Shown piece after piece: positions 2,408 to 28,763 of a stretch of 32,000 nucleotides of DNA. Every line of letters starts with the position of its first letter. Within the stretch, counting starts at the first letter, position 1. Both the position numbers and the translations under genes were made by a program. The stretch comes from Wolbachia endosymbiont of Dirofilaria (Dirofilaria) immitis (GTDB lineage: Bacteria; Pseudomonadota; Alphaproteobacteria; Rickettsiales; Anaplasmataceae). The notes under the pieces are model-generated. The model searched no databases. It saw only the letters and a list, made by a program, of their open reading frames with translations, and was not told where the DNA came from. The stretch spans positions 720,001 to 752,000 of the forward strand of contig NZ_CP046578.1 in the NCBI RefSeq assembly GCF_013365455.1. Reading direction: 5' to 3'.

Positions 2408-3590
2408 GGAATATTTAATCTCTACTATAATTAATAGTAAATATAGTATATCTCTTTTTTTTCTGATTAATAGCAGCTATAGTATAGCTATACAGACTTA
2501 ATATTGTAAGTGTATATAAGAAACCAGTCAGTAAAAAAGAGAGCAAAAACAAGATTAGCATTGCTGCAACTTGAAAATAAAGAAGGTATATAACAACAAT
2601 ATTTGGACGCTAAGTTTTTTGCGTGGTTATACTATTTAATTCCTTGATGAGATTAATCTATATCAACTACTAATTACTAGAACTTGGCGATAATGCCTAT
2701 TTAAGATACGAAGAAAATAAAATTGAAAACTAAATTTTCCATGTAAAAAAAGATTCTTATTAGTTACCTGTCAGTACGATACCAATAAGGTAATAAAACA
2801 TCTACCAGACGCTTACAAAATGCTACTAAAACATATAGTAAAAAGAAAAAAAAAGGGACTTCTAAACAAAAAAGATACAAGATAAAGGATCTTTCTAATT
2901 AATTAATAATTCTGAAATAATTCCTTTTACATCTAACTAGAGAAGTAAAACTATACAAGTATAAATCAATAATATATAACCTCACTATATAATACTAACT
3001 AAGATTAGATTTTAGACAAGCTATTAAAAATCATGACTTTTTAAAATCAAGCCTGACCAAATCTAAAAACAGCAGCTTATTAAATATTTCATATTACTAA
3101 ACCATCAAGACTCTTTAATTTTATTAAACTAGTAAACATAACATTTAGAACATCAACTGCTCAAGCAGCGGTAGCATGCTTTTTTAGTTCAAGTTTACTG
3201 CTGGATAATTTATAAAAAACTTTTCAGTTTAATAGATAAACTTCCTATAAATAAACCAGATTCAGCGTAAATTTGCTCACTTTTCCGGGAGATAAAGACA
3301 AGTTCACCCAATTTTTATTATATAAGGTACTTCATACAAGGCTCATTCAGTACCATACGGCATATATAAAATAGTATATAACGTAGACTTCTTACTAAGA
3401 CCAGAAATAAAATGCCAAGAGGCAGTGATCATTTCATATTTCACTACATTTTTTTATATTTCCTGCTTTAACCTCCCTTGCGCCTTTTACATTCAAAAAA
3501 TCCTCCTTCTATTTTTAAATATCAATTCTCTCATACTAACCTAGTGATAACTGAATATCAAGTACATATCTAATTTTAATGGCTAATTAG

Positions 3591-7642: not shown

Positions 7643-8353
7643 TACTCCAGATTATATTCAGTGTCAATATAATTAACTGTAATAGCTTGATCGATAAGAT
7701 AAGTGGCAATGGAAAATGGAGAAATAGTATTATAGAAATAATAAACATGATAAGCAGGTTTATATTACTATTATTAATAATCTATACCCATATATTAAAT
7801 ATAAAACTTGAAAGCTTAGTTAATATAGGCCTGATCTTGATTTTTGATCAGCCTCTAAAGCAACTAAACAATGGATAAAGATATAGAAGTCCATTAATTA
7901 AGTTTTAGTAAAAGTTCAAGTATGTCAAAAATACAAGTAAAAACACTAATAGAAATAAGCATTAGTAGAAACTGAGTAAGAGCAAAAGGTATGATATAGA
8001 GAGCTACATATCAATACTAAAAGCATTCTTAAAAAATACTTACTGTTTTACCTTGAGTAGGAAAATGCGAGAAAATATTAGAAAGCTGCAGAAACAAAAG
8101 CTCATAGCATAAATATGATATATAATAACATTAACACAAAATTAGAAGACTATATACAAAACCCTTAACTTACTGTGTGCGCTATATTAAGGTAATATCA
8201 ACAGCACTAGAAACAACACTAGCATAATAATAATACTTCAAAAGTAAGCTACACCATTCAATTTCAGCTTAAATGAGCTGCTAGAACCATCAATTATCGG
8301 TGTGTTATCTTTAAGAAAAACATAAGGCACAAAGTTGAGTGTCACACTATCAA

Positions 8354-8398
8354 TAAATATAAATACTAAATTTGTGATAAATTTAGTATTTATATTTA
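8354..8398. repeat. Perfect 20 bp inverted repeat with a 5 nt spacer
   Basis: taaatataaatactaaattt-gtgat-aaatttagtatttatattta, checked base by base. It lies 113 nt upstream of tRNA-His. Confidence 0.85.
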
Positions 8399-8510
8399 AT
8401 GAGAACCATATCACAGTTCAAAGCAAAAGAGCCTACTTAAATAACTAATTGACTTTTTTTTGCCGATGTGTTATGGGTTTCATAATTTTACACTTGTATG
8501 CTGGAAATTT

Positions 8511-8584
8511 GGCGGGTGTAGCTCAGTTGGTAGAGTGTCAGTTTGTGGTACTGAATGTCGCCAGTTCGATTCTGGTCACTCGCC
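8511..8584 (+). tRNA. tRNA-His (anticodon GTG) with encoded G-1
   Basis: The cloverleaf folds by hand. Acceptor gcgggtg/cactcgc, G-1 opposite C73, anticodon arm tcagt-ttGTGgt-actga, T arm gccag-ttcgatt-ctggt. CCA is not encoded. Confidence 0.95.
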
Positions 8585-8715
8585 CCTATCAAGTTTTTTT
8601 ACTCCATAAAAATAAAAGCACACCAAATACTTTTTTTATACATTTTTAGAGACCATTCCAAGAACTGATCTAATTTCTTAGTTAACTCTCAAATCATATA
8701 GACAACTTAACAGTA

Positions 8716-9878: not shown

Positions 9879-11056
9879 TAGTTACCTCTATTCATCCAAT
9901 TTTTTTTAACATAATTTAGCAGTAGTATAACACAAAAATATTTATTTCAAACTTTATTACTTACAATATATGCAAAAGACTTATAAAGTGCACGTACTCT
10001 ACTATAAGGTATTATACTATTACATACTTATTAAAAAAGTATAAATTATACCTAGCATAGTGTCAATTATTGCATACAAACTTCACGAGACATTAAGAAA
10101 GCATTATCTAATAGTAAAAAAATTAAACTTAACCATATAAGATATATCAATTAATCATAAACCAGCAACTAACAAAGAAAGAGATATCTCTTTGGTCACA
10201 AATGGGACCTGAACTTAAATCAGGTCAATAGAGGAACTTAAGAATAAATTCAAAAAAGTAGGTAAAATACATGTATATTATAAGATAAGCTGCCATAAAT
10301 ACGATCTTTATTGAAAAGAGATTGATTAAAAGCAAGAAATAAAATTGGAAAAGATATAAACATTAATATACAGCAAAGAATTCAGGAAAGAACATTTCCT
10401 CAATTGAAAAGTTGATATCTCTCAATACTATTGCCACTTACCACATGCTATGCAAGCAAAGGAATTTTAATGCTCTTGAGAGCATTAGTAATGATAAATA
10501 TCAAAGAAAACAGAAAGAAAAAACTTTATGATAGGAACGATAAGCGGAAGGTATAAGAAACAGCACAAAATAATACATAACAGAATTTAACGAATAAAAG
10601 TGGCAAGACATAATTATTGTACAGATTCACCTACACTTTAAAAAACTACAGTGAGCATAAATAAAATATACCCAATCAAGATAAAATAAAAGCAAGATCT
10701 AAAGAAAAGCTAGCAAAGAGAAAATTAAAGCATTAGTTTACGCTAAATCTGATAAAGGCATAAATTGGTGTGTAGTACTCTATCACAAGCCTGATAAACC
10801 ATATCTTTTTGAGTAGAATATCATCAAATTTACTCTCAACCTGAATTAATAGGCATGTTTCACTCACACATGTTGACTTACTAAAAATAGAGATAAGTAC
10901 CTTTCAATCAGTGATAGACAACCGATGATCAAAGAGTTAGCACCATAATAATATTCCTTAGTGCAAAATCCTTATACTTTATAAACAGCTAGTTTAATAA
11001 TAATTAAACCATTTAAAATATAAAATTATAACATATTAATTAGCTAGAGGGTTAAA

Positions 11057-11518
11057 ATGTCAACAAATTGGCTTCATGACTTATTATTCGGTTCTAATGA
11101 ATTGAAAATAGAAGCACTAGAAAAAGCTCAAAAGCTTAATGCTAAGCAGCTTGAAAAGGTATTCAATACATTTGAAAAAATTGACAATGAACAGCTTCAA
11201 CTTATGCAAGATCATTTAAACAGTCTGCAAGAAAAAGTAGAAACACTCACAGAGACAGTAGCAAATCAAGAAAAAATAACGCTAACTTGTTGCATTGCAG
11301 CCAGCGTTGTTGCTTTAGCGGCAATTAGCTTTATTGGCTTCTGTATCTATCAGGGAATGAAGAATGAAAAGGAGAAACAAAGGAACTCATTTCAGAGCGT
11401 GTCAACTAAGAAATTGACTAATTTATGTAAACTAAACCCAGATACGAAATTTAACATAGATATCAGTAACACTAAAAAATCAATAAAAGGTCAAGAGTCA
11501 GTGGCAGCGTACAAATAA
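11057..11518 (+). CDS. Hypothetical membrane-anchored coiled-coil protein
   Basis: The 153 aa product has an N-terminal heptad-like helical region, one TM helix (CCIAASVVALAAISFIGFCIY) and a basic C-terminal tail. I recognise no family. gaggg lies upstream of the ATG. Confidence 0.5.
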   Translation: MSTNWLHDLLFGSNELKIEALEKAQKLNAKQLEKVFNTFEKIDNEQLQLMQDHLNSLQEKVETLTETVANQEKITLTCCIAASVVALAAISFIGFCIYQGMKNEKEKQRNSFQSVSTKKLTNLCKLNPDTKFNIDISNTKKSIKGQESVAAYK

Positions 11519-11521
11519 CAT

Positions 11522-11566
11522 TTTCCTTTAAAGGGATTACAAAATATGTAACCCCTTTAAAGGAAA
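11522..11566. terminator. Strong hairpin between convergent genes (candidate bidirectional terminator)
   Basis: tttcctttaaaggg and ccctttaaaggaaa form a 14 bp perfect stem around a 17 nt loop. It lies between the stop at 11518 (+) and the glmU stop at 11575 (-). There is no clear U-tract on either side. Confidence 0.45.
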
Positions 11567-11574
11567 GTAATAAA

Positions 11575-12813
11575 TTACTTTATTTTCTTAATCACTTGTC
11601 TCCTTTTTGTCATCACAAGCCTTCTCCTTGGCACATCTTTAACTATAATGCTACCTGCTGCAATTATAGACTCATCATGAATACTAAGCGGCGCAATCAA
11701 CGAACTATTTGAACCAACAAAGCAATTGCTTCCAATATTTGTCTTATGTTTTTTCCTCCCATCATAGTTACAAACAACAGTACCAGCACCTATATTACTT
11801 CCTGTCCCTACTTTAGTATTTCCTATATAACTTAAGTGCTTTACTCTAGCGTTTACACCTATATCACTTGCTTTTGCTTCAACAAAATTTCCCACAATTG
11901 CATTATCACCAACTGTTGTACATTCACACTTAGTAAATGGACCAATTTTAACACCAGAACCTACTTTTACTCCAGGACCAAAAAAAACATATGGGTAAAT
12001 AATTGAATCTATACCAATTTGAGTATCAAAAGAAAAAAAAACAGTCTCCGGAGCAACAAGAGTTACTCCCGAACTAGTAAAGAATTTTCTCTGACTTTCT
12101 TGAAAGAAAAACTCAGCTTTTGCGAGTTCATTCCTGTCATTTATACCAGCTGCCTCCTCCTCTTTAACAGTAATATAACCGACGTTTAAATTACTCTTTA
12201 TCGCAATGGAAACTATATCAGTCAAGTAATACTCATGAGTCAATTTATTACATTCTATCTTTTCCACCAAGTTACGTAAATCTTTCATATATGCAACCAT
12301 TATTCCAGCATTCGCAAGAAATTCTTCACCACTACTTTCTCCATTTCGCGCTTCTACAATTTCTCTCAAGAAATCATTCTCAATAATTAACCTACCATAC
12401 CCTTTACTACTAGTTCTAAAACCAAGACAAACCAGAGCCTTACCTTCTAAGCAACCAATCATTCTAGTTATCGTGCTGCTTCTTATAAACGGAGTATCTC
12501 CATACTGTACAATAACTATATTTGAACCTGGTAACTCCCTCAGACTTCTCATCGCAGTCCTAACTGCATCTCCTGTGCCGAGCATTGATTCTTGTGTAAT
12601 TAACTGTACACCTTCAAAACACTCTAATTTTTCAATCAAAGGAAGATCAACCACAATAGCTATATTCCCGGGATCTAACTGTTTTGCGTTATAAGTAACA
12701 TGCTTAAGCATAGGGAAATTACCTATCTTATGTAGAACTTTAGGCAAGTTTGAATTCATACGCTTGCCATGCCCGGCAGCGAGTATAACAAATGTATAAG
12801 CTTTGTTTTTCAC
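11575..12813 (-). CDS. glmU: Bifunctional GlcNAc-1-P uridyltransferase / GlcN-1-P acetyltransferase (GlmU-like)
   Basis: The 412 aa product has N-terminal VILAAGHGKRMNSNLPKVLH, a central EYYLTDIV motif and C-terminal hexapeptide repeats (GNFVEAK...HLSYIGNTKVG..SNIGAGTVVCNYDG..KHKT.IG). Its GTG start abuts the pheS stop. Confidence 0.85.
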   Translation of the reverse strand: MKNKAYTFVILAAGHGKRMNSNLPKVLHKIGNFPMLKHVTYNAKQLDPGNIAIVVDLPLIEKLECFEGVQLITQESMLGTGDAVRTAMRSLRELPGSNIVIVQYGDTPFIRSSTITRMIGCLEGKALVCLGFRTSSKGYGRLIIENDFLREIVEARNGESSGEEFLANAGIMVAYMKDLRNLVEKIECNKLTHEYYLTDIVSIAIKSNLNVGYITVKEEEAAGINDRNELAKAEFFFQESQRKFFTSSGVTLVAPETVFFSFDTQIGIDSIIYPYVFFGPGVKVGSGVKIGPFTKCECTTVGDNAIVGNFVEAKASDIGVNARVKHLSYIGNTKVGTGSNIGAGTVVCNYDGRKKHKTNIGSNCFVGSNSSLIAPLSIHDESIIAAGSIIVKDVPRRRLVMTKRRQVIKKIK

Positions 12814-13860
12814 TTATTTTAAAGATAAAAAATGAAAACCATAATGGTTGATCCAGCTAATTTTATTGTTATAAAAGCTCCTTAGGTCACCAATTTGATA
12901 TTTTAGCATCGCAAGCCTTTCTATGCCAACACCAAATGCAAAACCATTATATTTAGTATAGTCTATCCCAACACTTCGAAAGACATTTGGGTGTACCATA
13001 CCACATCCAAGCACCTCAATCCATTTATTATCTTTATAACTTATATCCACTTCTATAGAAGGCTCAGTAAAAGGAAAAAAACTACCACGGAAACGTACCT
13101 TTAGCCCTCTATCTCCAAAGAACCTATTAAGGAAGTAGTGAATAGTAAATTTTAGCTGGCCCATATTGACATTTTCATTTACATATAGCCCCTCTATCTG
13201 ATGGAACATAGGAGTGTGAGTTGCATCAAAATCATTTCTGTATACCCTACCTGCGGCCACTACTTTAATTGGGAAAGTTTTTACCTTTTCCATGGTTCTA
13301 ACCTGCGCAGATGAAGTATGAGTACGCAGCAATATCCTTTTTTTGTTATCTATTTTGTTCTTTAAGTAGAAGGTATCTTGCCCCTCACGTGCAGGATGAT
13401 AACTTGGAGTATTTAGCGCATCAAATACATAAAACTCATCCTCAATTTCTGGACTGTCTACTGCTTTAAAGCCCATATGTGCAAAAATGAGTTTTGCTTC
13501 GTTTATAACCTTACTGAGCGGGTGGATCTTACCAACTCTCTCTGGTCTAACAGGTAATGTAATATCAACTGCTTCACTCTGCAGTTTAAAGTTAATTCTC
13601 TCAGCTCTTAGTATATTTCCCTTATTTATTATAAGTTGATCTAGCTTATTGCGTAAGGCATTAATGGCCTTACCCAAATTATACTTCTTTTCCGTATTTT
13701 TCATCTTTCTTAAGCCATTAAAATATGCTTTAATTACACCCTTTCTCCCTAAATATAATAGCCTAACTTTTTCCAAACTTTGCAAAGAAGAAGCACTTTC
13801 AATTTCGGATACAGCTCTATTTTCAAGCAAAGACATCTCATTTAGCAGTTCTTTATTCAT
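12814..13860 (-). CDS. pheS: Phenylalanine--tRNA ligase alpha subunit
   Basis: The 348 aa product carries class II aaRS motifs (HPAREGQDTFY, LLRTHTSSAQVR, FRGSFFPFTEPS.EVD, GCGMVHPNV, AFGVGIERLAMLKY). Confidence 0.95.
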   Translation of the reverse strand: MNKELLNEMSLLENRAVSEIESASSLQSLEKVRLLYLGRKGVIKAYFNGLRKMKNTEKKYNLGKAINALRNKLDQLIINKGNILRAERINFKLQSEAVDITLPVRPERVGKIHPLSKVINEAKLIFAHMGFKAVDSPEIEDEFYVFDALNTPSYHPAREGQDTFYLKNKIDNKKRILLRTHTSSAQVRTMEKVKTFPIKVVAAGRVYRNDFDATHTPMFHQIEGLYVNENVNMGQLKFTIHYFLNRFFGDRGLKVRFRGSFFPFTEPSIEVDISYKDNKWIEVLGCGMVHPNVFRSVGIDYTKYNGFAFGVGIERLAMLKYQIGDLRSFYNNKISWINHYGFHFLSLK

Positions 13861-13885
13861 CCCAGAAACGCTAGCTTAAACATTC

Positions 13886-13913
13886 ATTATAACAAAAACT
13901 TATACAACATCAA
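13886..13913 (-). promoter_or_regulatory. Candidate sigma-70 promoter for pheS-glmU
   Basis: On the minus strand, TTGATG (13913-13908), a 16 nt spacer, then TATAAT (13891-13886). This is about 26 nt upstream of the pheS ATG. The call rests on sequence pattern only. Confidence 0.35.
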
Positions 13914-15019
13914 CAATTCAAAAAACTATCCTATTCCAATTACTAATCTATTGATTAACTAAACTTTTTTTTACCTAACTCTACATTAAAACATATTATA
14001 TTGACTATATATAATAGTAACATTGAAACTAAGAGAGAATATAAAGCAGAGGATTGCTAAACTCTCCAAGGGAGAGATATAAAGACATAAGTAAAGCATT
14101 CTCTAATATAAAGTAAAAGATCTATAGTATTGCTTACTTGAGTAAGGTTTACAAATAATTATATAAGAGTTTTTACCTAAGCGAATAATACGACAACAGT
14201 AGATCAAAGCATTAAGATACTATTACTCCAAGCAAAACATTTAATTAACTTCTTTAAATCTATCTCCTCCGAGAAAAAAATCTCTTTAATTAACATAAAA
14301 GTACTAAAAGAAAGTAGCAAATTATATTATGACCTAATAAAAATTACCGAAGAACTCATCAGTAACACTCTACCTAAAATCTCTCTATAGTAAATACTAA
14401 TCACGCTACAAACAAATATTAAAATTAACTTTAGTAATTTGCACCAGATTCTATTCCTAAATTAGGAGCCAGAACACGTAAAAAAACTGAAAGCAAAGGG
14501 CAGAAATAAGTTACGTAAATCAAAGATTCCTTCAGCTAAAATGCAAGCAAGTAACAAAAAGCAAGTTACTATACACCAGTAACTGCTTCAGCAATGCATA
14601 AAAATGCACAGAGAACAATCAAGCAATCATGCCATATACAGAGTATGCCAAGGCCAATAAAAAAGCTAAAAAGTAGAAGATAGAAGAAGAAAGATGACCT
14701 ACCATAAGACAAACTCAAACTAATACTAGGTTATTAGCTATGACAAATAATCTAACTGAGCACAAGAAAAAAATTAGATAAGATATTATTAAAGTAGTCG
14801 GTAAATACTAAAGACTAAGACACAGAAACATTTCACAATACTTTTAACCTAGTGTTTAACACCATTTATTTTGCAAACAAACAATCATATGAAATATTAA
14901 AAGTATTATAAAATGCTACAACCAACTGGCAAGTTTTCTACTCTAGAAGAATATTCACAAAAGTAAGTACATAGAGAAAAAGAGTGATTATTTAAATTAG
15001 TTTTAGGTATTCATACACA

Positions 15020-15440
15020 ACAACCTTTTCCATAGCCTAAAAATACCTTACATGAAAATGGAAAATATACATGAATAAAGCCACAAATTGCTAAACCGAA
15101 CAAAAAGCTCTGCTGGCCAATATTACCTTTAAAATCACTGTTCAAAACTGTTTTTCCTAAAAGACTCACTTTTGTCTATTTTTGATAGCGTTCTTTATAC
15201 CGTATACCGATATTCTGCCTAGGCATTTACCTCTTGGAAAATGCACCAATCTTAAAAAGGATTAGCGCTATCAGAAATAAAGTATTAGGTCAACACTGAA
15301 CATAAGGTTACTAATAACAATCACATTATGTGCTTTAAACTTAGCCGACCTTATATATTTAAATATTTAGTAGAATTTACTGAATAAATAAGTCAAAACA
15401 AGCTTCCTTTTCCTATTCAGAAGAATAGAAACAGTTGTTT
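15020..15440 (-). pseudogene. Probable eroded 3,4-dihydroxy-2-butanone-4-phosphate synthase (ribB-like) relic
   Basis: Minus-strand frames give SFLRLVHFPRGKCLGRISVYG (15246-15214 encodes VHFPRGKCLGR). This compares with RibB S.L.RPGHVFPL.A..GGVL.R.GHTE. Further 3' come ..FE..(stops)..AELFVRFSNLWLYSCIFSIFM*GIFR, compared with ..CE....DG.MAR......FA..H.L...SI.DL..YR. The matches are colinear but interrupted by stops and frameshifts, and the N-terminal half appears to be missing. Confidence 0.35.
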
Positions 15441-15481
15441 TAAAGGACTTTATATAATAAAATGGATTTCTGTTTTGCTGT

Positions 15482-16076
15482 ACGTTTAAAGGAGTCATTA
15501 CAGATATTGAATTACAATTGACACCACATTTTACTCCGACTCTGATCAAATCTTCTACATGAAGGCACAAAACTTACTTTCCATATAAGGGAGATTCAAT
15601 AGCCTGTTCCAGTATACATTTAACTGCTATTGACATAATCAATGATATATTCACAGTCCAAGCATCTTAAGAAATTATGAAAGTTTTTAACTTAAATATG
15701 TGGAAAGAGGGAAAAATAAACTTAGAGCAAGCAATAAGATTAAGTAATAGAATTGATGCTACTTAGTTCAAGGTCATGTAGACAAGATAGTATAAATTTT
15801 AGCAATTAGTCAAAACTTAGATTCTTATGAAATTAAGTTATCATGCCCAGAAGAATTAATAAAATCAGTTGCAAAAAATGGATCTGTTACCCTAGATGGG
15901 CTGGTTCCCCCATCACAGTAAATCCAATTATCAATCAGGAATTTACTGTAAATATTACTCTCTATACATAGTAAAATATAACTTTCCAGTATAATAAAGT
16001 AAATGATAGTTTAAATTTAGAAGTTAACATAACTGCTAGGCATTTAGACCAGCTTATGCAGCATAAAAACAATTAA
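15482..16076 (+). pseudogene. ribE: Eroded riboflavin synthase alpha chain (ribE/ribC) pseudogene, near full length
   Basis: The frame from 15482 reads TFKGVITDI..(TGA 15560)..KGDSIACSSIHLTAIDIINDIFTVQAS(TAA 15668)EIMKVFNLNMWKEGKINLEQAIRLSNRIDAT(TAG 15764). This is colinear with MFTGII...GDSIAVNG.CLTV...FTVDV.PET...TNL..L..G..VNLE.A......GGH. After two frameshifts it reads PEELIKSVAKNGSVTLDG / ITVNPIINQEFTVNITLYT** / NDSLNLEVNITARHLDQLM, which matches the second lumazine-binding repeat (KGSIA.DG.SLTV...F.V.IIPHT....G..VNLE.D...KY). The start codon position reads ACG. Confidence 0.8.
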
Positions 16077-16136
16077 TTTTACAATCTTGTTATCTACATC
16101 TACACTTATTATACTTGAAAACCATAAGCGTATAGT

Positions 16137-16721
16137 ATGCTTTTTGATTATCTAATCATCTTTATCATCGTTTTATGTATAATAATCTCAATCACTAGGG
16201 GCTTTATAAAAGAATTATGCGCATTAATGTTTCTGTTTTTATCGATCTTTCTAACAGTTAATTATTATGATTTTTTTACCATAAATTACAGTAAATATTT
16301 TGATTCCAAAGTCATGCAAAACATACTTTCTACAATTTCTGTATTTATTATACTTAACTTCATATTTATAATAATAAATAACTGGCTAATGTACATATTA
16401 CTACCTATAAGGCTAGGGTTAATCGACAGAGTCACTGGAATCTGTATTGGAACCCTTAAAGGGATATTACTTTCTCACATACTACTTTCCGTCGTGCACT
16501 TATACTGCTATATAATATATGATAAAAAAGAGGAAGAGTCTAAAATAGAAGAAATATTACCTAACTGGATAATAAGATCACATTCTTATCAGACTTTATT
16601 TATAACAATAGAAAACATAGTTGATATGTATGTACCAGAGTCGTTTATACTAAAAATCAAAGAGATTGGAAAAGACATGACTAACCAAGAGAAACCTGAA
16701 CGTAATCAGAAAGAAAAGTAA
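16137..16721 (+). CDS. cvpA: CvpA-family membrane protein
   Basis: The 194 aa product has 4 TM helices and the characteristic N-terminus MLFDYLIIFIIVLCIIISITRGFIKE. Confidence 0.6.
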   Translation: MLFDYLIIFIIVLCIIISITRGFIKELCALMFLFLSIFLTVNYYDFFTINYSKYFDSKVMQNILSTISVFIILNFIFIIINNWLMYILLPIRLGLIDRVTGICIGTLKGILLSHILLSVVHLYCYIIYDKKEEESKIEEILPNWIIRSHSYQTLFITIENIVDMYVPESFILKIKEIGKDMTNQEKPERNQKEK

Positions 16722-16879
16722 CAATTATATCTATAAAGCAACAATTAATAATTTTCATTTAGCAGCAGTTTTTTTCTTGATCAGCATAACTAGCCTCCCG
16801 CTTATTAGCAGTTGTTTCCTATTATGAGTTAAGCTAAAATCCTGTGGTATATATTAAAGCTCGAAGAAATATCTTTTAC

Positions 16880-17344
16880 ATGGAAGTTATTATAGAAAAT
16901 AGAAAAATAAGGTTTGAGTACTTTCTTTTAGAAGAATTTGAAGCAGGAATAGTTTTGTTAAGTAGTGAAGTCAAATCACTAAGGGAAAGAAAAGTAAATG
17001 TCTCTGACGCTTACGTCATCGAAAGAAACGGTGAAATATGGCTATATAATATGCATATTGCAGAATATAAAGCCGCAAACCGAAAAAATCATAAGCCAAA
17101 AAGAGAACGTAAACTACTTCTGCATAAAAAAGAGATAAATAAATTAATTAGCCAAATTAAGACTGCTGGAATAACTGTTGTACCACTTTCAATTTATTTT
17201 AATGACAAAGGATTAGCAAAAACTAAAATTGCTATCGTGAAAGGAAAAAAACTTTATGATAAGAGAGCAACCATAAAACAGAGGGAATGGAATCGCGAGA
17301 AAAGTGGACTATTTAAAATAACTTGTAGCAAAATATGTCTTTAA
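16880..17344 (+). CDS. smpB: SsrA-binding protein SmpB
   Basis: [40 protein letters not shown] matches the SmpB N-terminus. I place the start at the ATG at 16880 rather than the GTG at 16844 used by the ORF track. The 3' end overlaps the lgt start by 10 nt. Confidence 0.9.
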
Positions 17345-18123
17345 GCCCAGTAATTTTTAGGATTGGTTCTATCTCTATATACTGGTACTCTCTAGCATAT
17401 ATTTTCGGTATAGCGTTTGCACACTGGTATTCATATAAGCTAGATAACCAAAAGATATTTACTAAAAACTTTCATGATTCGTTATTAACAGTTACTATTA
17501 TAGGTGTCATACTCGGAGGCAGGCTTGGCTATGTATTGATATATGATTTAGGTTATTATGTAAACAACCCTATTGAGATATTGAAAACCTGGAAAGGAGG
17601 TATGTCGTTTCACGGCGGTGCCATAGGAGTTTTTCTTGCGGTGGCAATTCTATGTAAAAAATATAATATTCCTGTGTTTTACACACTAGATCTAATTTCT
17701 TGCGGAGTTCCTGTAGGTTTATTTTTAGGCCGAATAGGCAATCTTATAAATGGAGAGTTATTTGGTAGAATTACAACTATACCTTGGGGTATAGTATTCT
17801 CAGAAAGCGATAATTTACCACGTCACCCAAGCCAACTTTATGAGGCATTTTTTGAAGGATTATTGCTTTTCATAGTTATGAATCTACTGTTTTTCTTGAC
17901 TAGAATAAGATTATATCGTGGTACATTGACTAGCATTGCGGTTATATGGTACGGAATAGTACGTTTTATGGTCGAGTTTCTCCGTGAACCAGATTATCAA
18001 CTTGGCTACCTATGGCTCGGGTTAACCATGGGACAGTTACTTTCAGCACCCATGATTTTGTTAGGAACAATCTTATTTTTGAGTGCGTTAAATTTAAAAT
18101 TCACGAGCACAGAAAAAAGATAA
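17335..18123 (+). CDS. lgt: Prolipoprotein diacylglyceryl transferase
   Basis: The 262 aa polytopic protein carries the Lgt signatures [26 protein letters not shown] and HPSQLYEA. Confidence 0.93.
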
Positions 18124-18490
18124 ACCTGATCAGAAAATATCATTTATGCAAATTAAAGTCTGTAGCTTGCCATTTTAAAAATCATATAGCAACAAATTCA
18201 TAATAACTTCCAGTCTATTAAATAGAATAGCAAATATGTTAAAAAATTTTATCTAGAACTATCATATGAAAGAAAAACAGAAAGCTATTCTAGCGAGCTG
18301 TAAAAGCTAAGCTTTAAGGTTCAATCAGTCATACTATGATTATGTCTGTGCTATTAACTCTATGAAAGAGAAACATTAATATATTAACAATATTACTCGA
18401 CTTAATGATGAGAGTAATTAATATTAATAACTTTATCAAACATTATCATTAAAGATAATTATTATTATTCAGGTGTGACGACTTATATTA

Positions 18491-18516
18491 TAGAATTAAT
18501 AATATTATTAATTCTA
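18491..18516. repeat. Perfect 26 bp palindrome
   Basis: tagaattaataat|attattaattcta is exactly self-complementary, checked base by base. It contains a single G/C pair per arm. Confidence 0.85.
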
Positions 18517-19836
18517 ATAGCTTGAAATACTTTAGAAACGTGAGGTAAAGTACATATCAAGTCAGTAAATTTAGGTAAAATTATTCAGCACAGTTACCTA
18601 AAAAAGGTTTTCATAAAGAAATGGAAGTGTAATCATATCATTTTTCAGTGCCTGGAAAAGATCTTACCTATGGTCTTAGTTATCGAAAACAGAATTACTA
18701 GTCTATACTGCTAGTTACAAAAGCGCAGATTAGGGAAGCTCTTATAGTAATTTCAGGTACCAACATTAAAAGCATCTGCTTACAAGAAAGAGTACCGTAT
18801 AACTAGAAAGTTTTTATAGAACATAAAAAAGAATACTGCTTAGTGTTTGGCGAATTAACAATACGTGACACAATATCTAAAAATAACAAAAGAAAAAAAC
18901 ATATTAAAGATTCACAAAAAAAAAAGAAAAAGTCTTAACAAGCCAAAGAGCACTAGTCAAATACTTTACTTTGCTTTTTAAAATTCTATCTACACTAAAG
19001 CGTGATTTTCAAAAAAAAAAGGGTAGAGAAAAAAGCAAAAGGTATAAAATCTAATTTTTGAGCTTATCATGGACTAGTGTAAAATAAAGTAAGTAAGTAA
19101 GCAAGAGTAGATGAAACCAAATGAACAAGACTCCAATATTCAATAAATCAGCAACAGACTAGTAATCGAAAAGTTGAGACCAAAGTTAGTATCAATACAA
19201 AAGGAATAAAATAAAGTCATAGAAGTAGAACTCAGGTTATAACTATTGTCATGAGTCTGATACAAAACTTAAACTATTAAGAATAGAATTTAAAGCCTCT
19301 GACCCTGAAGTAAATTCATCTAATACCTAGTATAAAATAGAAAAAAGTATTTGCATTACAAAACAATTAAAGCATCCATTTGGTGATTCAGTAGAAAAAA
19401 ATTTCAAAAAATAAGTATTTTTATTAAAAATAAATATAAAAATATAATCATTTAAAAAATTAAAAATAAATTACTAAACACTCTACACAATACACCTTTC
19501 AACCACACCACTGAACACCTATAAGAAATCTACTAAACGGAAAAATAAAAGAAGCCCTAGAGATAATATCCTCCACTATTAAAAATTGATGTTCCATATT
19601 ATCTTAAACGCTTTATAAGTACAATTTCATACTTATATAAATAAAAACCTAGAAGACTAAGCAAAATTTACAAAGATATAAAGATATAAGGTAAGCATAG
19701 TGTAAAAAAACTATGTATTAAGACACTAGCTACATAATACCTTTGATTTTATGGTAAAGAGAATTACAAAATTTGTCAAGTAATTTCCTTTATTTCTAAT
19801 ATATCTATGTGCTGCTAAATGTTATACAAGAGTCTA

Positions 19837-19867
19837 TTGACTTTTAACACACTTTTGCCTATATAAT
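19837..19867 (+). promoter_or_regulatory. Candidate sigma-70 promoter for nuoD
   Basis: TTGACT (19837-19842), a 17 nt spacer, then TATATAAT (19860-19867). The nuoD ATG at 19891 is about 20 nt past the predicted start site. The call rests on sequence pattern only. Confidence 0.45.
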
Positions 19868-19890
19868 TTCAATACTTCAAGTTACCACAT

Positions 19891-21063
19891 ATGTCTAACC
19901 TAAAGACGATGATGTTAAATTTTGGGCCTCAACATCCGGCTGCACATGGAGTGTTGCGTCTTGTTTTAGAAATGGATGGCGAAGTGATTGAAAGAGCAGA
20001 CCCTCATATTGGTTTTCTACACCGTGGTACTGAAAAATTAATAGAACATAAAACGTATCTTCAAGCCTTACCTTATTTTGATCGCCTTGACTATGTATCA
20101 CCAATGTCACAAGAGCATGCATATTCACTATGCGTGGAAAAATTGCTACGATGTGAAGTTCCAATTAGAGCAAAATACTTGCGTGTTCTATTTTGTGAAC
20201 TAACAAGAATACTCAACCATCTACTCAATATCTCTTCTCAAGCACTCGACGTCGGAGCAATGACTCCTCTTTTATGGCTCTTTGAAGAAAGAGAAAAGAT
20301 ATTAGAGTTTTATGAGAGAGCTTCAGGGGCAAGGTTTCATGCAGCTTATATTAGGCCAGGTGGAATCGCAGCAGATGTTCCAGAAGGTTTAACTGAGGAT
20401 ATTGCAAAGTTTATAGAGCAGTTTCCAAAGTATATAGACGATATTGACGACCTCTTAACAGAAAATAGAATATGGAAACAACGTACTGTAGGAATCAGTG
20501 AAATGTCAATTAAACAGGTTCTTGACTGGGGCTTTAGTGGCCCAATGTTGCGTGCAGCCGGACTTGCTTGGGATCTGCGAAAAAGCCAGCCATATGAGAT
20601 ATATGATCAATTAGATTTTGATATACCGATCGGCCAAAACGGCGACTGTTACGACCGTTATTTAGTAAGGATGGAAGAGATTAGGCAGTCTACTAGACTA
20701 GTAAAGCAATGTATAGAGAAAATGCCTGAAGGACCAATAAAAACTGAAGATAGAAAAATTTCTCCACCGCCAAGAGCAGAGATGAAAAAGTCTATGGAAG
20801 CTCTAATTCATCATTTTAAGCTTTATTCAGAAGGATACCATGTACCAGAAGGTGAGGCTTATGTGGCTGTTGAGGCACCAAAAGGCGAGTTTGGAGTATA
20901 TATAGTTTCAGATGGTACTAATCGACCATATAGATGTCGAATAAGAGCACCTGGCTTTGCACATTTACAAGCCTTAGATTTCATGGCAAAAGGGCACATG
21001 CTTTCTGATATTGTAGCAATCATTGGTTCACTTGATATAGTTTTTGGTGAGATTGACAGGTAG
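19891..21063 (+). CDS. nuoD: NADH-quinone oxidoreductase subunit D
   Basis: The 390 aa product has [34 protein letters not shown] and C-terminal [11 protein letters not shown], all canonical NuoD. No other nuo genes flank it. Confidence 0.97.
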
Positions 21064-21222: not shown

Positions 21223-21993
21223 TCAAAGCACATTTTCATTAAATAGGCAAACTGTGCTCAACCCGTTTCTTAAGGTAAACACAGAACCTACTTTTTCAAG
21301 TATAAGGTAATCATCAACTGTTCGAAAATTCACTATAGATTCATACCCTGCAGAGTCAACCATAAAAACTGCTGGAAAATCAGAATTTGTTTTATTAAAC
21401 TGCAGATACGTGAATTTCCCATCATCAAAGACTTTAGTTGGTACTATTGATTCACTACCTTTAACATGTGAGACAGAATAATTAAAGTTTAAGCCTCTTT
21501 TTATAACTTCAATATCATTCATATCAGGCAGCACAGTAGTAGGATTAGCTTGCTCAAGAATATCACCGTTACCAGTTGTATAGATTTCATCACTGTTAAA
21601 TAGTGGATAAAGAAACCTAACTTCATATGCTAACCTTGGATCATCTAGCCCAGTCGCTTCCTCAGCACGAAATTCAAAGTAATAAACTCTTTTATTAGTA
21701 ATAATAGTTGCATTAGTATCAGCAATATCATCTATAGGTTTAATGAACAACCTATTGCCCTGAGGAATAAGCTGCCAACCAGTTGGATCGCCCATTGAAA
21801 GGTTCTGTATTATCTCACCTGACTCAAACAATATGCTAGACTGATAACCATAAAAACCTGTGTACTTATGTATAGCCTGCGGATTATAATTTATTACCTT
21901 TATATGACTGTCTGCAGCTATTGAACGTGGTTCCTGTTTTGCAAACGCATCACCACAAAAAAACACCAGCACTATAAATAACAAACTAATCAT
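21223..21993 (-). CDS. virB9: Type IV secretion system protein VirB9 (solitary copy)
   Basis: The 256 aa product has a signal peptide (MISLLFIVLVFFCGDAFA) and a VirB9/TrbG-like body (ITNKRVYYFEFRA, GKFTYLQF, PAVFMVD). No other vir genes are present in the window. Confidence 0.8.
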   Translation of the reverse strand: MISLLFIVLVFFCGDAFAKQEPRSIAADSHIKVINYNPQAIHKYTGFYGYQSSILFESGEIIQNLSMGDPTGWQLIPQGNRLFIKPIDDIADTNATIITNKRVYYFEFRAEEATGLDDPRLAYEVRFLYPLFNSDEIYTTGNGDILEQANPTTVLPDMNDIEVIKRGLNFNYSVSHVKGSESIVPTKVFDDGKFTYLQFNKTNSDFPAVFMVDSAGYESIVNFRTVDDYLILEKVGSVFTLRNGLSTVCLFNENVL

Positions 21994-22099
21994 AATACTT
22001 AAACCGTATGCCAGTCATTATTCTACCATTGAGAAAAATTCACTGCAACTGTCAAGGCGTTATCTTATATATCACTTACTTACTACTTAAGCAATTGCA

Positions 22100-22968
22100 T
22101 AATCCACTGCTCCTTTAAACTTACTGATCAGGTTTTTATACCTTTTAGTAAACCAGATTTAAATTCCATATACCCCTATCTTTTCAGATAGTATAATCCT
22201 TTAGTTTATACATATGTAATACTTTTTCTATTAAAGGTACAAACAAAAATTAGAATTCTATCACATTTGTACTCTTGTTATTATTTTCCCATAAATTTTG
22301 ACCACCAAACAATGTAATATCACTACATAACCTGTAAGCCCAAATTTAGTGTTCCACCTGCTCCCAAACATACTTAACTGGTCTACTTATCCTACATAGC
22401 CATCTATATTAAATAATAGGAAATTTCCAGTTTCCCGTTGTTTTTGTTATATATAACATTTCTTTACTACCACGTTTGAAAGTAATATCAGTCTTATAAT
22501 CACTTAGTTAGGGGAATACTCCACAAACTGTCATCGCAGCACCAGCTTACTAGCATTTTATCAAGTCTATAAACAATTTCTAATCTTACACAAGCATAGA
22601 GGATTTTAGTAAGACATATAATAATTGTACTTAAAAGTGTATCCATTACTTGTTCTAGCACCTAAGTAGACAAATCAATTTACTCCATTTATCGAGAATC
22701 ACAATGTTCTCATCTTCGTAGATAATATCAAGCTCTATGTCATAATTAGTCTCAGTTGAGACTAATTATGACATAGGCAAAACCAAATTTTGCCAACGCA
22801 CTATAACAATTAGAGCACTCAACACATATTGAAATAGAGAAGAGTACTAAATTTATTACTCCCTGCGCTATATACACAAACATGATTATCACAATTGAGA
22901 CCTTTGTTCTAAGTTACTACACTTAGCATAGTTAAAAAATTTAACCCTGCCCATTTTGCTTCATTCAT
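22100..22968 (-). pseudogene. Eroded RluD/RluC-family 23S rRNA pseudouridine synthase relic
   Basis: Colinear minus-strand anchors sit in shifting frames. LDIIYEDENIVILDK (22732-22688) matches LDI.YEDE.I.V.NKP. IVYRLDK (22577-22557) followed by NASKLVLR matches the catalytic GIVHRLDKDTSGL.VVAK. SDITLFGG (22324-22301) matches .GD..YGG. VLHMYKLKDYTI (about 22222-22184) matches .LHA..L.F.HP. The 155 nt spacing between the first two anchors compares with about 159 nt in E. coli RluD. There are many in-frame stops, and the outer ends are approximate. Confidence 0.7.
22735..22776. repeat. Perfect 19 bp stem / 4 nt loop hairpin inside the rlu relic
   Basis: ctatgtcataattagtctc-agtt-gagactaattatgacatag, checked base by base. 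A second hairpin follows immediately at 22776-22794 (ggcaaaa-ccaaa-ttttgcc). Confidence 0.9.
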
Positions 22969-23281
22969 GTTTTAATAGCAAAAAGCTCCTGCTTCTCCCG
23001 TAAAGGATAGTAATTTACTACTGCTCTTTAATAGCAGCATTATCAGTACTGACTAAGATACCAAGAGATATATATAAAACTAGAGAAAATACCAAGCACA
23101 ATAAAAAAAAATTCCAAAGAAACACCAAATTCTTCTCTACAAGCATACTATAATAACCTAAGTGCTATGATAATAATCAATGGTTCAGGGAAATGCGGAT
23201 AAGAACAAAACTAAATGCCGTAAACTAACAACTCAGTTTATTATATAAAAAACCCTATATACTATAGGGATAATTTTATTC

Positions 23282-23310
23282 TTTTATTTTTTTATTATTA
23301 CAGATATAAT
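23282..23310 (+). promoter_or_regulatory. Candidate promoter for initiator tRNA
   Basis: A perfect TATAAT at 23305-23310 lies 13 nt upstream of the mature tRNA 5' end. The -35 region is poor (ttttat) and is embedded in an AT-rich tract. Confidence 0.3.
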
Positions 23311-23323
23311 AGCTAAATAACGA

Positions 23324-23397
<74 letters not shown>

Positions 23398-23953
23398 CTT
23401 CATGTCTATATTCCAAAAGTTACTTTAATTATTAAATCGATCTCACCCTAATAATAACAGAAAATCAAAATTCCACAGAAAAAATCATTATTACCAGTTA
23501 ATTAGAAAGGTTATATAGAAAAGGACTAAAGAACTTTTATAGTCTATTCTGCTACATTATCAGTAGCATGAGCTTCAAAATAGGAGCACTTGCAGATAAG
23601 ATCAATTTACGTTTCATTATCTTAAGTTGCAGATCAAAAGTTATTGCTACTGTTTCTTCAATATTATTTTACGCATATTATATACAACAGTATAAGAAAA
23701 GAACTATTCTCCACAAAAGATTCTTTCGTATATATTTAATTACACATTGTAGATATTATAATTTGAGTTAGTCTCACCACAATTCACAACCACTACTTTT
23801 CTGATATAATACTTAAATAACACCAGTAGCTTTAAAAACAATTACAGTGTGCTGCAGCGTATAGCTATACAGACGTTAAGTTAATTTTGTCTTACTTCCA
23901 GTGAAGGTAATTACTAAATCAAAGTGTTCATTGTATTACATAGTTTTACATAG

Positions 23954-27266: not shown

Positions 27267-28099
27267 ATCGAAAAAAAGTGATTTTTAGTTAACAAAGTAT
27301 ATACTACTTTTTTAGAAGTGTAAAAAATTCCATTCCTGCATAAATAGCCTTCTAAATGATAAATATAATTTTTAGCTATAGAAAGTCATAAACAACAGGT
27401 AAAAGTTCAGGGCAACATCTTTATATTAGTAATTTTGCTGCCTTTTTGGTTGAGTGTTTATCTAATAGCACTCAAATAAATAACTAGAAAATTTTTTATC
27501 CTAGAGTTAACTACTTTGAAGCATTACTCAATAACATAGCAAGTCTAGAAGATGAAGAAAAGATACAGATACCAATACAAAAGGAGCCTTTGCTCTAATA
27601 GGAAGAAAAAATTGAAGTTGCCTACAGTCTTTCCCAAGTCATTTCAGGATTTCTGCTAGCAGTGCTGAAGAGGACATTTGTCGAACACATGAAATGCTAA
27701 ATCTAAAAACTTATACTTTCAAACTGAATCATGCGATAGAGATTATTAGAACAATAAGTCACTCAAAGCATGTTAAATCTCATTATGATAAAAAGTACCA
27801 TGCTTAAGTAAAATATGATTTACTTTAGAAGAGCATCAAATTTTTAAGAAGTAAAAAAATGATGTTGGAAGAGACACTAAAAAGCATGCTAACGCTAATG
27901 CAGGCATTAAAAGCAGATTTTAGAGTCGCACTCAAAATGAAAAACGAAAGCTTTAATAATCTAGCTAGATGATTAATATATATTACTATTTTAACAGAGA
28001 AAGAATGTAATTACTCTGCACGCTGGTATTGGTGTAGTGTTAATTTAAGGTCAAATCTTCATAAGAGGACAAGATACGCATCTACTTACCAAGCAAAAT

Positions 28100-28739
28100 T
28101 TGGTATTAATTAATCAATTTACACCACAAGTGTAAGTACTTGCCATTCTGTACTATCTTTAGCATTCTTAGCAATAGGTTTGAAGGCACTTTGTACCTAT
28201 AATTAAAATACTAAAAGGTAAAAAATATACTTCCTATTGAAAAATAGCAGTAAAATCAATAAAATTAGGCGTATTAAATACACTACTGTAACTAGTACAA
28301 ACAGGTTTAGCATATATAACTTCTAGGCTCTGGTATTAGCTTATCGTTCTTAGCCTGCTATTTAAAGTAGCAGCGAAGTAGAAAAATAGTTGAACATATT
28401 GTCTATTCAGTGACCTACTTTGGGTAAATTCACTGAAAGCTTATTTACTGAAGTAGTAGTTATATCAAAATGGTACTATTATAACAATTCCGTTGTGAAT
28501 TTTTTTTCATTTTCTTAAAAGGGTACTGGCAATAGATACATCCAAGCACTCTGAATAGCACCATAAAATCACTACAATCAGATACATAAGACCTACAACA
28601 ACCCTAGCTACTTTTAAAGTAAAAACAGACCTTTAGACCAAAAAATATCGCTATTATTAGGATGGTAGAACTATAAAAACACGTCAAGCAATGTAGATAT
28701 TATATTATTTTAAAACACTATACTCTTTTTATAAAACAT
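28100..28739 (-). pseudogene. Probable eroded heme exporter permease (ccmB-like) relic
   Basis: An SD-like aaggtggaga and an ATG (28739) lie 24 nt after the ccmA stop. One frame then reads MFYKKSIVF*NNIISTLLDVFL*FYHP...FYGAIQSAWMYLLPVPF*ENEKKFTTELL** for 88 codons without a frameshift. It is hydrophobic, and a motif at 28520-28482 resembles the conserved CcmB F..D.eDGsLe.L at the colinear position. More hydrophobic frames follow (LNLFVLVTVVYLIRLILLILLLFF). At least 10 in-frame stops are present, and the 3' end is approximate. Confidence 0.45.
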
Positions 28740-28763
28740 TTTAAACTTTCTCTCCACCTTTGC

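Follow-up and report, generated by a model that had tools for sequence, protein, structure and literature searches.

Positions 15482–16076 of the window analyzed here, a 32,000-nt stretch of the genome of the Wolbachia endosymbiont of Dirofilaria immitis (wDimm, supergroup C; contig NZ_CP046578.1, positions 720,001 to 752,000 of the forward strand), carry the remains of ribE, the gene for riboflavin synthase (EC 2.5.1.9). We put the probability at about 95% that this element is a non-functional ribE pseudogene which lies at its orthologous position and was produced by ordinary reductive evolution. Riboflavin synthase (ribE; RibC in older E. coli naming) catalyzes the final reaction in the making of riboflavin, in which two molecules of 6,7-dimethyl-8-ribityllumazine are dismutated. 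The relic is a textbook pseudogene in a genome already known to be rich in them, and the loss of ribE from wDimm has already been published. Added here are an exact map of the lesions, a reading of the surrounding spacer as two tandem dead genes, and a comparison in which a single nonsense codon is common to all supergroup C relics.

Identity and lesions of the ribE relic

To read the relic in its ancestral frame, we aligned it at the codon level to 12 intact Wolbachia ribE genes. The relic is colinear with all 198 codons and the stop of the intact gene and measures 595 nt, compared with 597 nt for intact Wolbachia ribE. When stops were masked, each of the three forward frames of 15300–16200 separately matched the Pfam family Lum_binding (E = 8e-6, 1e-4 and 4e-3), and the three single-frame matches are colinear. 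The stitched 198-aa reading contains two Lum_binding domains (PF00677; E = 3e-21, 75.6 bits against a cutoff of 27) and matches the NCBIfam riboflavin synthase models PRK09289 (E = 7e-35) and TIGR00187 (E = 3e-30). Both of the latter scores are below the curated equivalog cutoffs (120 versus 155 bits for PRK09289, and 104.8 versus 156.6 bits for TIGR00187), which, as expected for a decayed gene, suggests a homologue that has fallen below the level of a functional equivalog.

A search of 5.8 billion proteins gave 198-aa Wolbachia riboflavin synthases as the best matches to the stitched reading (E ~1e-65, 55–71% identity), while matches to proteins from outside Wolbachia were far weaker, at E = 1e-16 or worse. 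Judged from these comparisons, the similarity to riboflavin synthase is far beyond chance and spans the entire length of the gene. An intact RibE used as a tblastn query matched a single place in the window, the relic itself. At the DNA level the relic is 76–78% identical to intact orthologues, compared with 82–84% among intact genes of different supergroups. The relic thus combines full-length homology to a functional gene with disabling mutations, the pattern by which bacterial pseudogenes are recognized.

The lesions called from the alignment comprise a lost start codon, four nonsense codons, four frameshifts and one in-frame 3-bp deletion:

15482..16076, + strand: ribE pseudogene, 595 nt, colinear with the 198 codons and stop of intact Wolbachia ribE
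15482..15484, + strand: lost start codon, ACG where the aligned orthologues have ATG (GTG in wMoz)
15508..15509, + strand: frameshift 1, a 1-bp deletion in codon 10 (GG to G; -1 after 15508)
15584..15585, + strand: frameshift 2, a 2-bp deletion in codons 35/36 at about 15584, where the first frame is regained
15668..15670, + strand: nonsense codon 64, TAA where 12 of 12 intact genes have CAA (Gln)
15705..15706 (approximate), + strand: in-frame 3-bp deletion in codons 76/77, from the alignment
15757..15758, + strand: frameshift 3, a 1-bp deletion in codon 95 (GGC to GC; -1 after 15757)
15793..15795, + strand: nonsense codon 107, TAA where intact genes have AAA, CAA or GAA
15903..15907, + strand: frameshift 4, a 5-bp insertion (GGTTC) after codon 143
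15969..15974, + strand: adjacent nonsense codons, TAG at codon 164 (15969; an invariant Trp, TGG, in intact genes) and TAA at codon 165 (15972)
15367..15570, - strand: chance open reading frame (ORF) of 67 aa with a TTG start, antisense over the 5' end of the relic

In addition to these lesions, Cys47 of the G-x-C-L-T-V motif, which is invariant in the 12 intact Wolbachia genes and also present in the aligned Brucella and S. pombe enzymes, is replaced by His (CAT). This Cys is presumably the active-site residue, Cys48 in E. coli numbering. Many other positions that are invariant across the intact genes are replaced as well. The longest forward ORF within the relic is 42 aa, and an open frame of about 200 codons with a start is absent. 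With no start codon, a frame broken by four nonsense codons and four frameshifts, His in place of the motif Cys and no forward ORF above 42 aa, the relic is unable to make the enzyme.

A first-pass annotation of this DNA, made from the letters and a list of ORFs, had described a riboflavin synthase relic with both lumazine-binding repeats readable colinearly over about 198 codons. This description is borne out by the paired Lum_binding domains, the NCBIfam models and the Wolbachia RibE matches, and the peptide strings that it quoted are found on a three-frame forward translation of 15400–16110. It had proposed a tblastn or profile search for riboflavin synthase similarity, the outcome of which is strongly positive in both the Lum_binding and RibE comparisons above. 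Its ACG at the start position aligns with the ATG or GTG of the orthologues, the length is kept as it had said, and the antisense frame at 15367–15570, which it gave as the sole ORF-track entry, is the only ORF of at least 60 aa here. Its lesion counts need correction. Instead of at least nine in-frame stops, there are four in the ancestral frame and five on the three-frame path that the annotation itself followed. In place of two frameshifts the alignment gives four; the first two had been overlooked, and codons 10–35 were taken out of frame. The true reading of this segment, in a different frame, is 'ITIDTTFYSDSDQIFYMKAQNLLS'. The wording "thoroughly eroded" was also too strong, given a DNA identity to intact orthologues that is not far below the identity of the intact genes to one another.

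Intact Wolbachia RibE (198 aa; for example wFol, P0002, and wLsig, L007 9354–9950) and the relic agree in locus, strand, length and the presence of two lumazine-binding domains. Unlike the intact protein, the relic has no start codon, is broken, has Cys47 replaced and scores below the equivalog cutoffs. Over its full length, the Wolbachia orthologue can be aligned to the solved riboflavin synthases of Brucella abortus (4E0F), S. pombe (1KZL) and E. coli (1I8D) at E = 1e-42 to 1e-27, and an MF(T/K)G N-terminus and the GxCLTV motif are common to the solved enzymes and this orthologue. The relic descends from the same family but, unlike these enzymes, presumably encodes no protein.

Some Wolbachia RibE proteins, mostly from group A, are longer, at 243–246 aa (P0022, P0033, P0041 and P0050; L001 9212–9940; L005 7850–8587). 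For P0022, and for L001 and L005 as judged by tblastn, the difference is due to some 48 aa (144 bp) inserted in frame in the second lumazine-binding domain, between 'LTVNSV' and 'EFTVNIIPYT'. This might be a small inserted element which is tolerated within the coding sequence.

The locus and a second relic

The relic occupies the downstream part of a spacer between two annotated genes, together with the remains of a second gene and a short intergenic region:

12814..13860, - strand: pheS (QKX02484), upstream boundary of the spacer
13998..15358, + strand: gene X relic, from a Wolbachia-only hypothetical gene of about 575 aa, colinear over several frames (tblastn E = 1e-12 and 1e-8)
16077..16136, + strand: ribE–cvpA intergenic region, nearly invariant across Wolbachia, with a promoter-like TTTACA-17-TATTAT motif
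16137..16721, + strand: cvpA (CvpA family protein, QKX02485), conserved downstream neighbor of ribE

The pheS and CvpA protein accessions are consecutive, which leaves the 2,276 bp between them (13861–16136) without an annotated protein; this length agrees with the 2.3 kb given at first pass. Of ten proteins encoded in the window, eight are identical to wDimm proteins (within QKX02478–QKX02495, on a chromosome of 920,122 bp). Ehrlichia or Rickettsia, which a GC content of about 30% and the long ORF-free stretches might suggest, was rejected on the strength of these identities and of the protein matches. NCBI taxonomy places the organism in the Anaplasmataceae, the family from which the first-pass annotation had proposed to align relatives. 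To place the relic among its relatives, species-representative genomes were scanned with the CvpA of the window, yielding 17 Wolbachia loci (best cvpA identity, 81%). At each of the 17, tblastn with intact RibE located ribE on the strand of cvpA, with a gap of about 60 bp between the end of ribE and the start of cvpA. The first-pass annotation had named an unrelated gene at this position in relatives as evidence that would speak against a ribE relic; it is ribE that the relatives hold. The match is uninterrupted over all 198 residues in 15 of the 17 loci. In one other (L002) it falls in two frames, and the last (L008) holds another relic.

The second relic was found with the product of L011 7547–9280, an intact gene, here called gene X, which arthropod Wolbachia carry between pheS and ribE. 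No Pfam domain is present in this family, and its members are solely Wolbachia proteins. Gene X is also a relic in L008, wOo (L020) and wMoz (L012), and no trace of it was found in wLsig (L007). The first-pass annotation thus holds as far as a ribE relic in the spacer is concerned, but the spacer is otherwise not empty, and the entire 2.3 kb is made up of two tandem dead genes. Decaying gene relics of this kind are familiar from the "junk DNA" of Rickettsia prowazekii and other reduced Rickettsiales genomes. The likeness is that, in an obligate intracellular alphaproteobacterium of high AT content, a recognizable but unannotated remnant takes up a long spacer; genus and gene differ.

Within the ribE–cvpA intergenic region, a 6-bp insertion in the window stretches the spacer of the TTTACA/TATTAT motif to 23 bp, and an alternative TTGTTA-17-TATACT site overlaps it. 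Across the spacer region, a promoter and terminator pattern scan showed no enrichment of promoter-like sites (19, compared with 17.1 ± 4.3 expected), and no terminator, Rfam family or tRNA was found by scans of 13861–16136. Since the region-wide scan is at chance level, the intergenic motif may be taken as a lead only.

Six more stretches of 1.1–2.0 kb in the window contain no ORF of at least 80 aa (2408–3590, 7643–8715, 9879–11056, 18124–19890, 21994–23953 and 27267–28763), and about 34% of its length is accounted for by these six and the ribE spacer. Two of the six hold a tRNA, tRNA-His at 8512–8586 and tRNA-Met at 23324–23398, and almost nothing of 18124–19890 can be aligned in L008. These six stretches probably hold further relics.

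Timing of ribE loss and alternative explanations

The relic was compared with five from the Onchocerca clade: that of wOo (HE660029.1; L020 3372–3946), its near-identical copies in three metagenome-assembled genomes (L018, L019 and L021), and that of L008. The wOo loci were fetched with wOo CvpA. L008 comes from an uncultured Wolbachia, the proteins of which group with those of Onchocerca symbionts; it is colinear with 10033–20655 of the window at 73–82% DNA identity. Every one of the Onchocerca-clade loci has a gene-free pheS–cvpA interval of 2.4 kb with a ribE relic of 575–600 nt.

Eight lesions are common to the five Onchocerca-clade relics (six indels, a TGA at Trp75 and the TAA at codon 107), and TAA107 is the sole disabling lesion that they all share with the window. 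The relics resemble that of the window in lying between pheS and cvpA after the gene X relic, in being multiply broken, and in carrying, besides TAA107, amino-acid changes such as T167I and D183N. Unlike the window, the Onchocerca clade has kept the ATG and carries its six shared indels and the Trp75 TGA, with a further 24 bp lost in wOo; the window, for its part, has five indels of its own, three further stops and the loss of the start. Codon 164 was hit independently: it reads TAG in the window and TGA in L008, and wOo retains TGG. V46I and the loss of Cys47, which occur in the window and in L008, were considered as ancestral changes and rejected, since Val46 and Cys47 are both kept in wOo and the changes are thus parallel. 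G45S is present in the window and wOo and absent in L008.

Divergence was then partitioned into nonsynonymous (N) and synonymous (S) differences. Between the window and the Onchocerca-clade relics, the nonsynonymous rate (dN) is 0.17 and the synonymous rate (dS) 0.44, for a ratio (omega, by the Nei–Gojobori method, NG86) of 0.39. The flanking genes pheS, cvpA, smpB and lgt have a dN of 0.06–0.08 at a dS of 0.44–0.67, and pairs of intact ribE have an omega of 0.12–0.18. The raw N:S differences are 80:24 for the window versus the Onchocerca relics, compared with about 51:47 for intact ribE pairs, and those polarized to the window lineage are 27:6, compared with 80:68 in intact lineages. The already-dead pair L008 and wOo gives an N:S of 27:6 and an omega of about 1.2, a ratio resting on only six synonymous changes. 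The raised dN and shifted N:S indicate relaxed constraint at the protein level. Most of the divergence was accrued without such constraint, but perhaps not all of it.

From the pattern of shared and private lesions, we place the death of ribE at or close to the base of supergroup C, with separate decay in each lineage afterwards. Two results weigh against a single ancestral death. First, simulation of neutral evolution gave a median omega of about 0.62 (5–95% range, 0.42–0.90), and only 2–3% of the runs were at or below the observed 0.39. Second, identity between the lineages is 81% for the ribE relic, 76% for the gene X relic and 85–88% for functional genes; because the relic is better conserved than gene X, part of its divergence would have accumulated under constraint.

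The alternative is that the ancestor shared by the Dirofilaria and Onchocerca Wolbachia still had a working ribE, which each lineage then lost on its own, TAA107 being a recurrent hit on a mutable codon; we consider the chances of this to be even. In addition to the two results just described, to which the ratio of about 1.2 between relics already dead may be added, parallel loss would account for the fact that none of the five window indels is found among the 7–9 indels of the Onchocerca clade. Recurrent hits are also demonstrated in this gene, at Trp164 (TAG, TGA or TGG), V46I and G45S. Against separate loss, the TAA at codon 107 is identical in all six supergroup C sequences, and ribE is missing from all three published supergroup C genomes. 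The raw N:S of 80:24 also resembles the dead-gene benchmark of 27:6 by eye, although the numbers in the benchmark are small, and the four stops of the window are no fewer than the 2.6–2.8 simulated for a wholly neutral branch. Thus, the choice between one death marked by the shared TAA107 and two deaths soon after the Dirofilaria/Onchocerca split is roughly balanced.

On our main reading, ribE decayed by ordinary reductive evolution after selection for de novo riboflavin synthesis had been relaxed. The near-complete length would then have been kept because dead DNA is deleted slowly in the wDimm lineage; slow deletion is suggested by the neighboring gene, which is also a relic, and by the third or so of the window that lacks any ORF of at least 80 aa. 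A different explanation for the nearly unchanged length is that the relic is kept for a non-coding role, as the transcribed 5' leader of cvpA-smpB-lgt or the carrier of their promoter. This would fit a TG-n-TAAAAT-like box upstream of the ribE start, which is conserved across Wolbachia along with the ribE–cvpA intergenic region, as well as the somewhat better conservation of the relic relative to that of gene X, and nearly all wOo pseudogenes are transcribed (PMC3514676). However, cvpA is preceded, within the 60-bp intergenic region, by a conserved promoter-like motif of its own, the wOo relic shed 24 bp while cvpA was retained, promoter-like sites are at chance level in a spacer without a terminator, Rfam family or tRNA, and slow deletion accounts equally well for the length. 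We therefore regard a non-coding role as very improbable. Least credible of all is an assembly or sequencing artefact, in which the gene would be intact in the living bacterium and the breaks would be long-read assembly errors: two of the frameshifts are indeed GG to G, a typical long-read error, but five lesions are substitutions (the start and the four nonsense codons), another is a 5-bp insertion, many invariant positions are replaced and dN is raised, an older, independent Illumina-based wDi annotation likewise lacks riboflavin synthase, and the copies of the closest relatives are independently broken in several separate assemblies.

Three other genes in the window drew our attention during these comparisons. 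The glmU gene is an intact 412-aa ORF in the window (11575–12813, - strand) and is broken over three frames in L008 (about 1683–2787, - strand). As it is dead in L008 but intact in wDimm, different genes have been lost in the two supergroup C lineages. A 153-aa ORF at 11057–11518 (+ strand) is without an NCBIfam match and has sub-threshold Pfam matches only; its counterpart in L008 (1139–1604; 63–78% identity) is split by a frameshift. Finally, a stand-alone virB9 at 21223–21993 (- strand) encodes 256 aa, compared with 261 aa in most Wolbachia of its 90% cluster, and lies away from any virB8-D4 operon, flanked by nuoD and a 2-kb ORF-free stretch.

The riboflavin pathway in wDimm

The 920-kb wDimm genome is that of Lefoulon et al. 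2020 (PMC8116671), whose supplementary table lists ribA, ribD, ribB, ribH and ribF for wDimm and leaves ribE blank. In the same table ribE is also blank for wOo, and wOv has two of six riboflavin genes. An older RAST table for wDi contains ribA, ribB, ribD, lumazine synthase and ribF, and riboflavin synthase is absent from it (PMC4289336). In wOo the riboflavin pathway is pseudogenized, and no peptides from wOo pseudogenes were found by Darby et al. 2012 (PMC3514676). The first-pass annotation had stated that, if no intact ribE exists elsewhere in the genome, flavin precursors must come from the host, and these whole-genome tables fit that condition. Within the window and the 17 Wolbachia loci, tblastn with E. 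coli RibA, RibB, RibD, RibH and RibF as queries gave no match.

Two points weigh against a pathway that has lost its final enzyme. That wDimm has no other, intact copy of ribE is taken from the published tables, our own search having covered 32 kb. In addition, the wDi pathway "appears complete and functional" according to Luck et al. 2014, who also report high expression of "RibE" (PMC4289336). Because the gene tables of that study hold lumazine synthase and no riboflavin synthase, its "RibE" apparently denotes lumazine synthase, as in E. coli nomenclature, and the gap at the final step seems to have gone unnoticed. The upstream genes call for similar care: the wDi 2.2 annotation in Luck et al. 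gives the ribD locus as 206 bp (wDi22.scaf1:290681-290886; PMC4289336), while Lefoulon et al. 2020 list ribD as present in wDimm (wDi2_02470; PMC8116671). Thus ribD may also be fragmentary, and in that case the pathway is more eroded than a loss of ribE only.

The sequence of the relic indicates that the last enzymatic step has been lost in the heartworm symbiont, in agreement with Lefoulon et al. 2020 and in disagreement with Luck et al. 2014. wDimm would then not complete riboflavin synthesis enzymatically and would take up riboflavin, or flavin cofactors, from the nematode cell. The ribF gene, reported as retained, would turn imported riboflavin into flavin mononucleotide (FMN) and flavin adenine dinucleotide (FAD).

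What goes beyond a routine gene loss is that the upstream riboflavin genes are reported to be present in wDimm despite a long-dead ribE. With nine disabling lesions in the 0.6 kb of ribE, the same density would lead one to expect about 50 in ribA, ribB, ribD and ribH together (about 3.3 kb, estimated). If these four genes are truly full-length, they must therefore be under selection. A truncated pathway could be kept for a purpose other than the enzymatic synthesis of riboflavin, such as production of 6,7-dimethyl-8-ribityllumazine or the supply of an intermediate to the worm, a possibility that we consider rather unlikely. 6,7-Dimethyl-8-ribityllumazine is able to dismutate to riboflavin non-enzymatically.

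Riboflavin provisioning was among the original explanations for the dependence of filarial nematodes on Wolbachia, and the pathway has been discussed as a target for anti-Wolbachia drugs. The loss described here suggests that wDimm would be no supplier of riboflavin to the heartworm, and that riboflavin provisioning would not be the basis of the heartworm–Wolbachia dependency.

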